DNA of 5,471 nt from a virus (Duplodnaviria > Heunggongvirae > Uroviricota > Caudoviricetes), in IMG/VR virus record IMGVR_UViG_2713896904_000005. One strand, 5' to 3'. The notes beneath the pieces were generated by a model. That model did no database searches, was not told the DNA's origin, and saw nothing but the letters and a program-made list of their open reading frames with translations. Each line of letters begins with the position of its first letter. Position 1 is the first letter of the stretch. The position numbers were made by a program, and so were the translations under genes. Positions 1,503-4,990 of the stretch are shown piece after piece.

Positions 1503-1990
1503 TAAGCCCCCACGTAATTCCCTGACAGATACCACTCTTCACCCGATGCAGCGCGCTTGCTGCTTTTCCGTAAGCACCGCTCACGACGCGCCAGAAAATT
1601 GTTTCGTTCTGGCTGGGAGTGGCTTTCACGGAATGCCGCCATCCACACCGTTGCAGCACGACGGTATAAGCCCCTGGACTCCAGTTCTTCAGCCTGGCGG
1701 GTCAGGCACAAAATCTCCCGCGGGTCGTTAGTGCCGACATAGAAATTGCGCACAGGTCTGGTTTCACGAACTGGTTGTGGTTCCGCCTCCTGCGCTCTCT
1801 CAGTCAGGCGCGGGAAATGTCTGCGTGTATCCCCTTCACAACGGTGAGCCACACGACCACTCTGACGTAACTTGCTTGCTGACTGCAGAACGCGCTGCCG
1901 TGAGTAACCTGCAAAAGCATCCGCAATGTCTCCGGAAGTACACCCCGGATGGGCTTCAATGTATTTCTGAACTTCATTCAAAAGACTCAT
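1502..1990 (-). CDS. Hypothetical small regulator with a PerC-like C-terminal motif (162 aa)
   Basis: ORF directly after the O-like gene. ATG at 1990..1988 is 2 nt after the O stop (TGA 1995..1993) and is preceded by GGGGGTGA. The C-terminal segment LESRGLYRRAATVWMAAFRESH...RRERCLRK resembles the PerC/Pch family motif (GLxRRAAxxW...CL) from memory. The N-terminal part (LLNEVQKYIEAHPGCTSGDIADAFAGYSRQRV) looks like a small helix-turn-helix. The track's 1996 start is a GTG two codons upstream. Confidence 0.6.
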   Translation of the reverse strand: MSLLNEVQKYIEAHPGCTSGDIADAFAGYSRQRVLQSASKLRQSGRVAHRCEGDTRRHFPRLTERAQEAEPQPVRETRPVRNFYVGTNDPREILCLTRQAEELESRGLYRRAATVWMAAFRESHSQPERNNFLARRERCLRKSSKRAASGEEWYLSGNYVGA

Positions 1991-1992
1991 GA

Positions 1993-2934
1993 TCACCCCC
2001 TGAATCCTGCCGGGATCTGGCTGTAGTCCACTTTGTCGTAACTGGCTTTGAAGTACGGGTCTTCGCGTTTTTCGGTGTACGTGCTGACGGACGGCGATAA
2101 GCGCAGGGAAAGCTCATCCCATTTTTCCCGCAGCTTCGACGGGCTGAGCACGTTACGGCACCAGAACGGATCGCGACTGACGCGGCTGTACATCTCGCAG
2201 ATTTGTTTGTGAGTACGACCATCCTGCACACACATCAGGCGAATTTCGTTTGCCCAGGCTGTCCAGTTCGGTTCTTTGGGACGAACCACCTCGCCGTCAC
2301 ATTCGGCGGCCTGCTCGTACAGGGCGATGATTTTTTTCCAGAGCCACTGTGCGCAGGTCAAATCATCCTGCGTTCCCCACTGGCGCTTTTTAGGGCTGAA
2401 TACAACCGCATCAGGATGGCGAGTTAAAAACTCCTGTTCAGCCGTCTGCGTGTCCGGTTGCGAAGCGTCCGGACGAGAAGTTTTTTTATCTGACGGATCA
2501 TGTTTTGATTTTACTGACGGATCCCCGCCAGATTCTGACGGGTGAAAACCCGCTTTTTTGCCAGATTTCGACGCATCAAATTTTGACGGGTCAGATTTTG
2601 ATGCGTCAGATTTTGACGGGTCAGAATCTGACAATTGAGAAAATGCCGCTGCCTGAAGCTTCGCAATGTTAAGCTGATAAACATTCGACGCATTGCGGTT
2701 ACCCTGGCGACGCGCCTTACGCGTTAACCAGCCTTCTGCTTCCAGCCGTGCGATAGCCGTTCTGACGGTACTCATCCCCGCGCCAATCTGACGGGCAATG
2801 GTTTCAATTGATGGCCAGCACACACCTTCGTCATTACTGAAATCAGCCAGGCGGGCCATAATTGCCACGCTGGATAATTTCATGCCTGACGCTGCGCAAC
2901 CATCCCATACATAGCCGGTTAATTTAGTGCTCAT
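1993..2934 (-). CDS. Replication initiator protein, lambda O-like (N-terminal helix-turn-helix, iteron-encoding linker)
   Basis: 313-aa ORF with N-terminal MKLSSVAIMARLADFSNDEGVCWPSIETIARQIGAGMSTVRTAIARLEAEGWLTRK, typical of phage replication-initiator HTH domains. AGAGG SD 6 nt before ATG 2934. Low-complexity linker (DPSKSDASKSDPSKFDASKS) is encoded by a tandem DNA repeat array, the lambda O arrangement. Follows cro/CII-like genes. Confidence 0.85.
   Translation of the reverse strand: MSTKLTGYVWDGCAASGMKLSSVAIMARLADFSNDEGVCWPSIETIARQIGAGMSTVRTAIARLEAEGWLTRKARRQGNRNASNVYQLNIAKLQAAAFSQLSDSDPSKSDASKSDPSKFDASKSGKKAGFHPSESGGDPSVKSKHDPSDKKTSRPDASQPDTQTAEQEFLTRHPDAVVFSPKKRQWGTQDDLTCAQWLWKKIIALYEQAAECDGEVVRPKEPNWTAWANEIRLMCVQDGRTHKQICEMYSRVSRDPFWCRNVLSPSKLREKWDELSLRLSPSVSTYTEKREDPYFKASYDKVDYSQIPAGFRG
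2486..2635. repeat. Putative phage origin of replication: array of 15-bp iterons (consensus TCAGATTTTGACGGG) plus flanking AT-rich tract, inside the O-like gene
   Basis: Five contiguous 15-bp units at 2561..2635 (ccagatttcgacgca / tcaaattttgacggg / tcagattttgatgcg / tcagattttgacggg / tcagaatctgacaat). Further copies of the TGACGG core at 2491, 2515 and 2536. A T-rich stretch at 2477..2490 lies on the side expected for an unwinding element. Confidence 0.7.
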
Positions 2935-2943
2935 GACCGACCT

Positions 2944-3282
2944 CTATTTCCCTGAATTTACGACGAAACTGTTCGAGCGGGCTGAAGCACTCATGCTCAT
3001 AGCCTTCACGGAGGTAGATAACCCGTTGTGTTTCCGGCTCCCAACGAATGACTCTGACGGGCACTCCGTAGTGATCTTTGAACCAGCGGTTAACTTGTCG
3101 CAAAGGACTGTCTCCTTCTGCCGGTTGAAATCACCCACAGCCCACTCTGCAAAGCTGTGGGTTACAATTTCCCTGTCACCTGGTACATTCACTGCATAGC
3201 AATACTCCACCTTCGCTTTTCCACCCGGTACAGGAAGCGCAATCAGTTGCGAGCGACGGTAGTGTGTTGTTAAACTGTTCAT
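2944..3282 (-). CDS. Hypothetical protein (112 aa), no recognisable domain
   Basis: ORF between the CII-like and O-like genes. ATG 3282..3280 overlaps the upstream stop (ATGA) and is preceded by GGAGA (rc of 3292..3296). Position and coupling argue for a real gene. Confidence 0.55.
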
Positions 3283-3842
3283 GCGTTAGTTTCTCCACAG
3301 TCACGACACGCCACGGCGCCCGGAGCTGCACACTCGCGGGCGTCATTACTTTCTGAAATGCAAAAGATTTTGTAGACCAGTGCTGCATGCTCCTGCAGCT
3401 TCGAAATTGAGAGATACAGCTCGTCGTTAATTGCTGTCTTCTCATGCGGTTCCACTACACCGTCTTCGATTGCTGAACGAATCTGTTTTGAATAACTGCC
3501 GATCTGTTCAATGACTTCCAGCAGACGCTGGTTAATATCGGCGTTGTCCACATCCTCGACGTCAGGAAGAGACACAAAGACGCCATTTGCAGACTGCGCC
3601 ACAGCGTCAGCAATGAAGTGAGTTCCACCAGCACGTTGCAAAATCATTGCCCATCCCAGCGGGAAAATCTGATCGCCATCGGCACGAAGGCGGTTAAATA
3701 ATGCGTTCTCTGTTACATCCAGCCAGTCAGCTGCTTCAGCGTAACCACCCGGCAACTTTGCGATAGTTTTTCTGACAGCTTTCACGTACCACTCAGGCTG
3801 TTTTTCTACTTTCCAGTGATGCTTACCCACGGTTAGCCTCAT
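3279..3842 (-). CDS. CII-like phage regulatory protein (187 aa; CP76/YdaT-like position after cro)
   Basis: Second gene of the rightward operon, 31 nt after the cro-like stop. N-terminal half has an HTH-like stretch ([42 protein letters not shown]) loosely resembling lambda CII. C-terminus carries four Cys (C-x9-C-x7-C-x2-C). No clear SD before ATG 3842, and no in-frame alternative start upstream before a stop at 3900..3902. Confidence 0.6.
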
Positions 3843-3873: not shown

Positions 3874-4074
3874 CTAATCTTTCGGATAGATATCCGGTCT
3901 TAAGTCAGATTTCGTAATTGCACCTGATGTGTATTGCTCAAGTTTTTTAGCCAGCACAAAACTGGCTTTTTTATAGCCATTGAAAACCAGCCGTAAGTAG
4001 CCAGGTGTTGAGCCAACTTTTCCGGCCAACTCGCCCTGCTGTTCTTTGGTTAAAGAGTCCCAATACGCTTTCAT
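3874..4074 (-). CDS. Cro-like helix-turn-helix repressor (66 aa)
   Basis: MKAYWDSLTKEQQGELAGKVGSTPGYLRLVFNGYKKASFVLAKKLEQYTSGAITKSDLRPDIYPKD is a small Cro/YdaS-type HTH protein with the characteristic C-terminal ...LRPDI motif. Divergent from the CI-like gene. ATG 4074 has GGAGG (rc of 4085..4089) upstream; the track's 4098 start has no SD and falls in the operator region. Confidence 0.8.
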   Translation of the reverse strand: MKAYWDSLTKEQQGELAGKVGSTPGYLRLVFNGYKKASFVLAKKLEQYTSGAITKSDLRPDIYPKD

Positions 4075-4164
4075 ACAATATGTACCTCCGGTGTACATAT
4101 TACATGATTAAAATGAACCTTCAAGATACTTGTACCTTAACGGTACAAGGGTTTTAATTTCGTT
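4075..4164. promoter_or_regulatory. Divergent promoter/operator region (OR-like) between cro-like and CI-like genes
   Basis: Two 19-bp inverted-repeat sites: 4080..4098 ATGTACC-tccgg-TGTACAT (6/7 half-site symmetry) and 4130..4148 TTGTACC-ttaac-GGTACAA (perfect). Candidate cro promoter on the minus strand: -35 TTGAAG (rc of 4119..4124), 16-bp spacer, -10 TAATAT (rc of 4097..4102). Candidate cI promoter -10 TTTAAT at 4153..4158, just before ATG 4165. Confidence 0.6.
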
Positions 4165-4839
4165 ATGAAAACAATCCATGACATCCGGCGGTCTAACGCC
4201 AGAAAACTGAGAGATGGTGTTGGCGGGAATTCTTCCTTTGCCACTATGATTGATCGCGAGCCAACCCAGACCAGCAGGTTTATGGGAGATGGTGCTACTA
4301 AAAATATCGGTGACAGCATGGCACGACACATCGAAAAATGTTTCGACCTGCCTGTAGGATGGCTCGATCAAGAACACCAGACAACGAACATCACAAAAAA
4401 ACCTGATGTTTCAATCACTAATAAACAAATCACATTAGTCCCTGTCATATCATGGGTACAGGCCGGAGCATGGAAAGAAGTTGGATATTCTGAGGTTGAT
4501 TTGAGCACAGCAGAAACGTATCCCTGCCCTGTACCCTGTGGGGAAATGACTTATATCTTGCGGGTGATAGGTGATTCAATGATTGATGAGTACCGCCCGG
4601 GAGACATGATTTTTGTCGATCCTGAAGTACCTGCCTGCCACGGTGACGACGTTATTGCATTGATGCACGATACAGGTGAAACCACCTTCAAAAGGTTGAT
4701 AGAAGATGGGACACAGCGTTATCTCAAAGCGTTAAACCCAAACTGGCCTGAGCCTTACATTAAGATCAACGGTAATTGCTCTATAATTGGTACTGTGATT
4801 TTCTCAGGAAAACCAAGAAGATACAAAATCAAAGCCTAA
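4165..4839 (+). CDS. CI-like phage repressor with N-terminal HTH and C-terminal LexA-type S24 autopeptidase domain
   Basis: 224 aa. HTH region (FATMIDREPTQTSRF...MARHIEKCFDLPVGWLD). Probable cleavage site VQAG-AW (compare lambda CI VQAG-MF). Ser nucleophile in LRVIGDSM and Lys in TTFKRL, matching the LexA/CI Ser-Lys dyad context. Divergent from the cro-like gene. Confidence 0.9.
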   Translation: MKTIHDIRRSNARKLRDGVGGNSSFATMIDREPTQTSRFMGDGATKNIGDSMARHIEKCFDLPVGWLDQEHQTTNITKKPDVSITNKQITLVPVISWVQAGAWKEVGYSEVDLSTAETYPCPVPCGEMTYILRVIGDSMIDEYRPGDMIFVDPEVPACHGDDVIALMHDTGETTFKRLIEDGTQRYLKALNPNWPEPYIKINGNCSIIGTVIFSGKPRRYKIKA

Positions 4840-4878: not shown

Positions 4879-4912
4879 TTGACAATGTACCCTTTAGATA
4901 CATAATGTACCC
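4879..4912 (+). promoter_or_regulatory. Strong sigma70-type promoter (pL-like) with embedded operator
   Basis: -35 TTGACA (4879..4884), 16-bp spacer, -10 CATAAT (4901..4906). The spacer and -10 contain the 19-bp site ATGTACC-cttta-GATACAT (4885..4903), same architecture as the two OR sites. A further ATGTACC half-site lies at 4905..4911. Confidence 0.65.
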
Positions 4913-4990
4913 AAGAGAAACAACAAACAGGCAGGACGCCCACGAAGTAGCCGCCTGGGGCATATGAAGTCCAGGATGATTCGTTAGCAA

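Follow-up and report, generated by a model that had tools for sequence, protein, structure and literature searches.

What is an array of short repeats doing in the middle of a gene for a replication initiator? The question is raised by a 5,471-nucleotide stretch of a virus of the class Caudoviricetes (IMG/VR record IMGVR_UViG_2713896904_000005), which we call the window and which is the immunity and early-right region of a lambdoid prophage. On its minus strand, the open reading frame (ORF) 1993-2934 encodes an O-like replication protein of 313 amino acids (aa) that matches PHROG 391, 'replication initiation O-like', at E 1e-134, and 15-bp repeats lie between its domains. A first-pass annotation, made from the letters of the window, had proposed a lambda-type origin within this gene, and the comparative evidence discussed below, from homology to lambda O through synonymous constraint to the inheritance of the region as a module, speaks strongly for that proposal. 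We hold with a probability of roughly 80% that positions 2478-2634 would be the vegetative replication origin of an SfII/SfIV-type lambdoid prophage, situated within its own initiator gene. The gene is ~99.5% identical to those of the Shigella phages SfIV and SfII and of many Escherichia coli prophages, and the 313-aa protein is 99.5% identical to SfIV gp41.

The repeats themselves are readily delimited. Tandem Repeats Finder detects an array of period 15 at 2562-2625 (4.3 copies, 81% matches, consensus CAGATTTTGACGGGT). Read in the palindromic register GTCAGAWTCTGAC with up to three mismatches, the whole window contains exactly six sites against 1.28 expected, starting at 2527, 2560, 2575, 2590, 2605 and 2620 and thus spaced by 33, 15, 15, 15 and 15 bp. 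All six fall inside 106 bp (2527-2632), a density to be compared with the maximum of two per 110 bp reached in 3000 first-order Markov simulations. The last five starts are those of five head-to-tail 15-bp units (2560-2634), imperfect palindromes with the coding-strand consensus sCr-TCA-rAA-TCT-GAC, which is read as (S/F)D(P/A)SK. The repeats are translated as part of the initiator (...SDSDPSKSDASKSDPSKFDASKS...), with SDPSK-SDASK-SDPSK-FDASK as the array peptide, so that the Ser/Asp/Lys-rich linker described in the first-pass annotation can be read directly from the ORF; together with an AT-rich tract, they occupy the mid-gene interdomain linker of the protein. Two small ORFs in the repeats, 2505-2672 (+) and 2511-2693 (-), were set aside as by-products of the repeat in other frames.

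Which part of the unit is the functional one? The hexamer TGACGG, initially taken as the common core, is indeed frequent, with 12 exact copies in the window against 2.9 expected, five of which lie within 2486-2635 (at 2491, 2515, 2536, 2584 and 2614). It occurs exactly in only two of the five tandem units, however. We rejected it because its CGG part, a Pro, Ala or Thr codon, varies in relatives, while TCA-rAw-TCT-GA is conserved. As read from the alignments, the conserved core is instead the palindrome YCAGAWTCTGR; written out, a single palindromic site has the sequence GTCAGAATCTGAC.

In the direction of transcription, the array is followed by a spacer with A6 and T4 tracts (2540-2559; coding strand AAAAAAGCGGGTTTT), whose TTT is conserved in relatives, and then by an isolated 19-bp near-palindrome, CCCGCCAGATTCTGACGGG, at 2524-2542. 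Eight of nine arm positions of this site are complementary, it differs from the 13-mer GTCAGAWTCTGAC by one mismatch, and it is the best-conserved site of the family, with the core CCAGAWTCTGG or TCAGAWTCTGG. Directly downstream of it lies the 40-mer of lowest GC content in the gene (2478-2517; 27.5% GC against a gene mean of 52.7%), a candidate DNA-unwinding element whose position is itself conserved: the lowest-GC window has the same offset in 46 of 55 non-redundant relatives. Two half-sites with the sequence CTGACGGATC, at 2514-2523 and 2490-2499, each carry a GATC (2520-2523 and 2496-2499), and both GATC half-sites fall inside the AT-rich tract region. At the first, the coding strand GGG GAT CCG TCA GTA is almost invariant in relatives, third positions included; at the second, GAT CCr TCA G is conserved in most, although some have GAA CCA and hence no GATC there. 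These details refine the initial picture of five tandem units and three degenerate copies followed by an AT-rich tract. The five units stand, whereas the degenerate copies prove to be a complete palindrome at 2524-2542 plus half-sites at 2490-2499 and 2514-2523; the AT-rich tract is confirmed, yet it does not follow all the copies, since it contains the two half-sites.

Are these features a property of the DNA or a by-product of the protein that it encodes? Three sets of relatives, ~160 overall, bear on this. The first comprises 80 near-identical IMG/VR relatives (N-terminal domains 99% identical), which are informative for copy-number variation and unsuited to divergence tests; the second, nine annotated phages with a DNA identity of 72-82%; and the third, 80 loci from Enterobacterales, one genome per species, with N-terminal domains that are 51-99% identical. 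Every intact relative has the same order of elements: the N-terminal domain, then two to nine units, then the block TTTGACCCG(T/C)CAGAATCTGGnGGGGATCCGTCAGTAAAtTCAAAAcaaGATCCATCAGATAAAAAA. In an alignment of 73 relatives across Enterobacterales, codons 127-154 (2473-2556) form a block that is conserved at the level of DNA. At columns with a conserved amino acid, in 56 non-redundant sequences across the order, the majority codon accounts on average for a fraction of 0.93 of the sequences in the block (median 100%), compared with 0.53 for the N-terminal domain (Mann-Whitney p = 8e-8). A Gly codon that falls on the free position of the palindrome does vary (majority codon 55%), and this one unconstrained third position indicates that divergence among the relatives is ample. 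The tandem units have a codon choice of their own: 82% of their Ser codons are TCA or TCT, against 26% elsewhere in the same genes, and 97% of their Lys codons are AAA, against 61%.

The simplest alternative would be a pure protein repeat, that is, a flexible, low-complexity Ser/Asp/Lys linker expanded by slippage, in which the similarity of the DNA follows from recent duplication. A unit of exactly five codons whose number varies in frame fits this well, as does the lack of predicted secondary structure in a low-confidence model of the region, and slippage would homogenise codons within an array. Such an origin of the repeats is nevertheless very unlikely, because the single-copy block is frozen at synonymous sites as well, from Escherichia to Providencia and Pantoea, and because an exchange of the N-terminal domain brings other repeats with it whereas an exchange of the C-terminal domain does not. 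Moreover, the conserved element is a palindrome, which is a property of DNA and not of a peptide. At the isolated site, complementarity of mirror positions 1-4 and 7 is kept in 96-100% of 53 distinct relatives, with position 6 free. In phiP27 and in a prophage of Citrobacter sp. NCU1 the last palindrome is even kept in another frame, where it encodes TLQNLD or TRQNLT instead of PSESG.

Palindromes also fold, and an RNA element is thus the next candidate: expression of the initiator might be controlled by hairpins of the early mRNA or by an antisense transcript that stops at a hairpin at 2539-2552. The single strand of 2470-2640 folds with z = -4.0, and the plus strand at 2539-2552 has a 5-bp hairpin with a GAAA loop and a T-run. 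We consider this highly improbable. The consensus fold of the 53 distinct relatives reaches just -2.5 kcal/mol, the free mirror pair at position 6 does not covary (it is complementary in 45% of cases, and in 48% after shuffling), Rfam gives no match, and the 2539-2552 hairpin is not evidently conserved in relatives. As a feature of the window, the latter is a terminator-like structure, CGGGT-GAAA-ACCCG followed by CTTTTTT, antisense to the initiator gene; it overlaps the spacer between array and palindrome, and its stem is not obviously conserved. A search for an internal promoter yielded no sigma-70-like match in 1900-3672.

The location of the motif points in the same direction as its conservation. 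With at most one mismatch allowed, the linker zones of 74 genes contain 294 copies of the 11-mer (13.7 per kb), the remainder of these genes has one (0.02 per kb) and their upstream flanks have three (0.026 per kb), which amounts to a ~500-fold enrichment in the linker zone. In the 39.8-kb SfIV genome, both exact copies of the 11-mer lie within the array and the motif is found nowhere else. Synonymous constraint, independence of frame, location of the motif and lack of an RNA signal are four independent lines, and together they show, in comparative terms, that this DNA is under selection independently of the protein.

If the DNA is selected, which protein reads it? An answer can be sought in how the gene has been shuffled. 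In the relatives the N-terminal domain is always followed by the repeat array, and this combination has been joined to at least three unrelated C-terminal domains: a lambda-O-like one in the window and in Klebsiella phages, a Phg_2220_C type in phiNP, Flotzy and YeP1, and a third type in phiP27, where DnaC and a helicase follow. The phage mEp460_4F5 presents the reverse case. Its C-terminal domain, which has 97% DNA identity with that of the window, is joined to an unrelated N-terminal domain, and where the window has its array this phage carries four different repeats, ATCrGGTCAAArTG, followed by an AT-rich tract of its own. Genome comparison thereby shows N-terminal domain, repeats and AT tract to be inherited as one module. 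Since the repeats go with the N-terminal domain rather than with the C-terminal one, the former is indicated as the reader.

The match to mEp460_4F5 covers only 1993-2489 of the window, which places the approximate mosaic junction at 2485-2495, with 97% identity on the side of the lower coordinates and unrelated sequence upstream. Could the block, then, be a recombination hot spot, a boundary sequence kept for exchanging initiator halves among lambdoid phages? Mosaic junctions do occur just after the AT-rich tract. We give this next to no weight, however, because the junction borders the block on its downstream side and does not fall inside it, and because a palindrome of fixed spacing and a specific DNA-binding domain are conserved, neither of which is needed by a boundary sequence.

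The domains of the initiator can be assigned as follows. Its N-terminal part (aa 1-98; 2641-2934, minus strand) is a winged-helix DNA-binding domain of the Pfam family HTH_36 (aa 23-70, E 4e-11, 42.9 bits against a gathering cut-off of 25), with weak additional matches to DnaD_N and RP-C. In 69 relatives, conservation reaches at least 95% in two of its sequence stretches, GxSTVRTA and RRxGNRNxSN, and this near-invariance of recognition-helix residues, which matches that of the DNA core, likewise points, if indirectly, to the N-terminal domain as the reader of the sites. Presumably, therefore, it is this domain that recognises the iterons. The C-terminal domain (aa ~172-277; 2104-2421, minus strand) matches no Pfam family and is homologous to that of lambda O: BLASTP aligns aa 70-277 with lambda O aa 78-270 at 31% identity (E 8e-26) and finds no similarity between the N-terminal halves. 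In Pfam, the N-terminal domain matches only HTH_36 and related winged-helix models and not Phage_rep_O (PF04492), which lambda O itself matches at E 6e-36. Thus the label 'O-like', given to the ORF at first, applies to the C-terminal domain and not to the N-terminal one. A single-sequence AlphaFold2 model, in which aa 100-161 have no predicted secondary structure, was set aside as too poor (mean pLDDT 43).

When the two proteins are aligned, the repeats and the AT tract stand opposite codons 117-160 of lambda O, where the four iterons and the AT-rich region of lambda are annotated, and the arrangement is thus equivalent in position. In ori-lambda, partly palindromic initiator sites are followed by an AT-rich tract in the direction of transcription, and the number of iterons varies from four in lambda to six in Shiga toxin (Stx) phages such as 933W (PMC7466680). 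The window shares with these origins the place in the middle of the initiator gene, the sequence of palindromic repeats and AT tract, the homologous C-terminal domain, a variable number of iterons, and an N-terminal half that forms one specificity module with the repeats while the C-terminal half is exchangeable. In lambda and its relatives, classically, origin specificity goes with the N-terminal half of O. A further argument comes from the gene content: the SfIV annotation, covering the whole genome, contains no helicase, no loader (P-, DnaC- or DnaB-like) and no primase gene. The 313-aa initiator is the sole recognisable replication gene of an SfIV-type phage, and an origin recognised by it is thus needed somewhere.

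This somewhere need not be the array, and the palindromes could instead serve regulation. They would then bind the initiator or another regulator for autorepression, as a roadblock in the early operon or for copy control, with the origin elsewhere. Sites of 11-13 bp with an operator-like palindromic form would be suited to such a role, and DnaA boxes are absent nearby. We regard this as unlikely, because a conserved AT-rich tract lies directly beside the sites, because the sites, measured from the homologous C-terminal domain, occupy the place of ori-lambda, and because N-terminal domain, sites and AT tract travel as one module; the SfIV genome has the motif at no other place, and an origin can be accounted for without a further repeat cluster.

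Several observations weigh against the origin assignment. The N-terminal domain of the initiator is not of the lambda O type, and the sites are palindromes of 11-13 bp abutting at 15 bp, in contrast to the 18-19-bp iterons of lambda with their spacing of ~20-24 bp. The initiator is not followed by a gene for a P-like loader, so that the pathway known from lambda cannot apply unchanged. There is no excess of DnaA boxes near the array: TTWTNCACA with at most one mismatch occurs 13 times in the window against 10.7 expected, and not at all within 2343-3216. The preservation of a palindrome in another frame is seen in two related sequences only. Concerted evolution driven by slippage could cause part of the codon bias in the tandem units, although it cannot explain that of the single-copy block. 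Lastly, the literature yielded no report of binding or origin activity for any member of the family.

How would such an origin work? The initiator would be made by rightward early transcription from the cro promoter. Dimers of its winged-helix N-terminal domain would then bind YCAGAWTCTGR at the five abutting units and at the isolated near-perfect site. The 15-bp spacing of neighbours, ~1.4 helical turns, can be read as alternating half-sites at 7/8 bp, from which a dense packing of the protein would be expected. The two half-sites may carry binding into the adjacent 40-bp AT-rich tract, which would melt, and the lambda-O-like C-terminal domain would recruit the host helicase machinery. In lambda O, the half homologous to this domain is the P-binding half. 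As the phage has no P, DnaC or DnaB gene, recruitment of a helicase would have to use host factors. As the origin DNA is also translated as a Ser/Asp/Lys-rich linker, it would be dual-coded, and a gain or loss of units would alter origin and protein together, in frame.

The AT tract might offer a further level of control. Its two conserved GATCs, together with the Dam methylase genes found downstream in many relatives, suggest regulation by methylation or SeqA, a possibility that we mention as speculation. Methylation and SeqA control are known from oriC and P1 oriR. As separate observations, the two GATCs are kept through exclusive use of GAT codons for Asp, and a DNA adenine methylase gene lies just downstream of the initiator in phiNP, KpF5, P7641, 733R5, YeP1 and mEp460_4F5. 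In the Klebsiella relatives with a lambda-O-like C-terminal domain, a methylase gene directly follows the initiator.

Taken one step further, and here we are tentative and rather doubtful, these elements might define an 'initiator-solo' class of origins, very widespread in Enterobacterales prophages: the C-terminal domain, of the lambda O type or one interchangeable with it, would recruit the host helicase without P or DnaC, the alternating half-sites would nucleate a continuous initiator filament that melts the GATC-bearing AT tract, and Dam methylation might tune firing. If this holds true, the second role of ~80 bp of coding DNA would have frozen its synonymous sites throughout an entire bacterial order. 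The locus would be a clean natural case of dual-coded DNA with a measurable synonymous-site signature, and it raises the question of how a lambda-O-like C-terminal domain loads a helicase without an encoded P protein. Replication incompatibility or cross-activation would be predicted among prophages with a common module. In practical terms, recognising the origin and YCAGAWTCTGR could improve the annotation of prophages, including the serotype-converting Shigella phages SfII and SfIV.

Where does this origin stand among known ones? An origin inside an initiator gene is textbook knowledge; this particular origin and its motif are apparently undescribed. Full-text searches of the literature, including the genome papers of SfI, SfIV and Sf101 and with those of phiP27 and SfV outside their coverage, yielded no description of either. 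P22 gene 18, phi80 and 82 have origins within their initiator genes too, with like placement and modular logic, other N-terminal domains and repeats, and a helicase or helicase loader next to the initiator. Compared with lambda, the window has HTH_36 as its N-terminal domain in place of Phage_rep_O, an extra isolated palindrome and two GATC half-sites in the AT tract, and no P gene after the initiator. With mEp460_4F5-type phages it has in common the C-terminal domain, the PerC-like gene downstream, and repeats and an AT tract at the same place, and it differs in the unrelated N-terminal domain and in the sequence and the narrower spacing of the repeats, which in that phage are four copies of ATCrGGTCAAArTG. 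The name P27 calls for some care: in PMC7466680 it denotes an Stx phage of the lambda O type, which is not to be equated with phiP27 L17. The Rac prophage, with oriJ and YdaU, was dropped as a characterised relative, as YdaU is a DUF1376 protein and belongs to another family.

A second comparison leads to plasmids. In P1 oriR, F, pSC101 and R6K, the binding sites of a winged-helix initiator are clustered beside an AT-rich tract, and the AT tracts of P1 oriR and of oriC carry GATC sites. The window resembles iteron plasmids in its winged-helix initiator, here with a weak RP-C match, its clustered sites and its AT tract with GATC. Their iterons, however, are direct repeats of 17-22 bp, usually in helical phase, outside the rep gene and usually with adjoining DnaA boxes, in contrast to the palindromic 15-bp units inside the gene and the lack of a DnaA-box excess observed here.

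How widely is the module distributed? Of 5426 complete E. coli genomes, 2107 contain it; RefSeq names the initiator there only a 'helix-turn-helix domain-containing protein' and annotates no origin. The core YCAGAWTCTGR is used from Escherichia to Proteus, Yersinia and Pantoea, and the specificity is thus not private to this phage, as had been assumed at first. The expectation that repeat number would change origin and protein alike agrees with the relatives, which vary in whole 15-bp units, in frame, from two to nine per gene and most often with five; 222 of 224 unit spacings are 15 bp. The comparison of iteron number across related prophages that the first-pass annotation had suggested bears this out at close range: among the 80 IMG/VR relatives, 72 proteins have 313 aa and seven differ by whole units (±5 or 10 aa). 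One further member of this set (L034) has a frameshift between spacer and palindrome (…GKKSGFSPVRIWRGSVSKIKT*) that cuts its initiator to 145 aa, and it is probably a decaying prophage.

At the other end of the range, the two most distant relatives (L167 and L169; 51-52% N-domain identity) retain CCTCCAGAWTCTGGAGG palindromes. The former has three 33-bp repeats (EPPVFRATSGL) between its palindromes and the latter a single related copy, insertions which indicate that the architecture of the array is not uniform across the family. Remnants are also observed. In E. coli DH1 (K-12 lineage; L174), 2052-2759 is a 5'-truncated initiator pseudogene next to yfdN (PerC-like), which lacks the N-terminus and keeps array, AT tract and C-terminal domain, with the methylase remnant yfdM adjoining; we take this truncated copy to lie in the cryptic prophage CPS-53. 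In two E. coli chromosomes (L140 and L168) the N-terminal domain breaks off at residue 79 and the frame continues into what seems to be phage terminase-like sequence, probably because a deletion in a prophage remnant has joined its early to its late region. Assemblies labelled Vagococcus, Chryseobacterium, Martelella and Pseudomonas (L098, L122, L127 and L159) carry the module with 65-88% protein identity, which is likely to reflect contamination or mislabelling. Two phage-sized circular E. coli 'plasmid' records (H95 and H96; 41.5 kb and 37.7 kb) carry it as well, and these may be excised or replicating phage genomes that were assembled as plasmids.

The genes around the initiator complete the lambdoid picture. 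A cI-like S24 repressor gene (4165-4839, plus strand) faces a minus-strand series of a cro-like gene (3874-4098), a CII (CP76) gene (3279-3842), a gene for a 112-aa protein of unknown function (2944-3282) and the initiator gene. Beyond the initiator, on the same strand, lie a PerC-like gene with a winged-helix-like N-terminal half (1502-1996), genes for a LexA_DNA_bind protein (1176-1535) and RusA (790-1179), and a KilA-N protein gene (3-770), so that no P-, DnaC- or DnaB-type partner adjoins the initiator. The PerC-like gene overlaps the stop codon of the initiator at 1993-1996 (ATGA), an overlap that suggests translational coupling. It also comes after the initiator in mEp460_4F5 and, under the name yfdN, in E. 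coli K-12.

The immunity region has repeated motifs of its own. The cI-cro intergenic region (4071-4149) contains AATGTACC / GGTACA motifs, with inverted repeats at 4071-4085/4093-4107 and, as CTTGTACC-TTAA-CGGTACAAG, at 4129-4149. The motif occurs twice more just downstream of the cI-like gene (4884-4922), beside a TTGACA. The two regions, 4071-4149 and 4884-4922, are candidates for the right and left operators of this immunity type.

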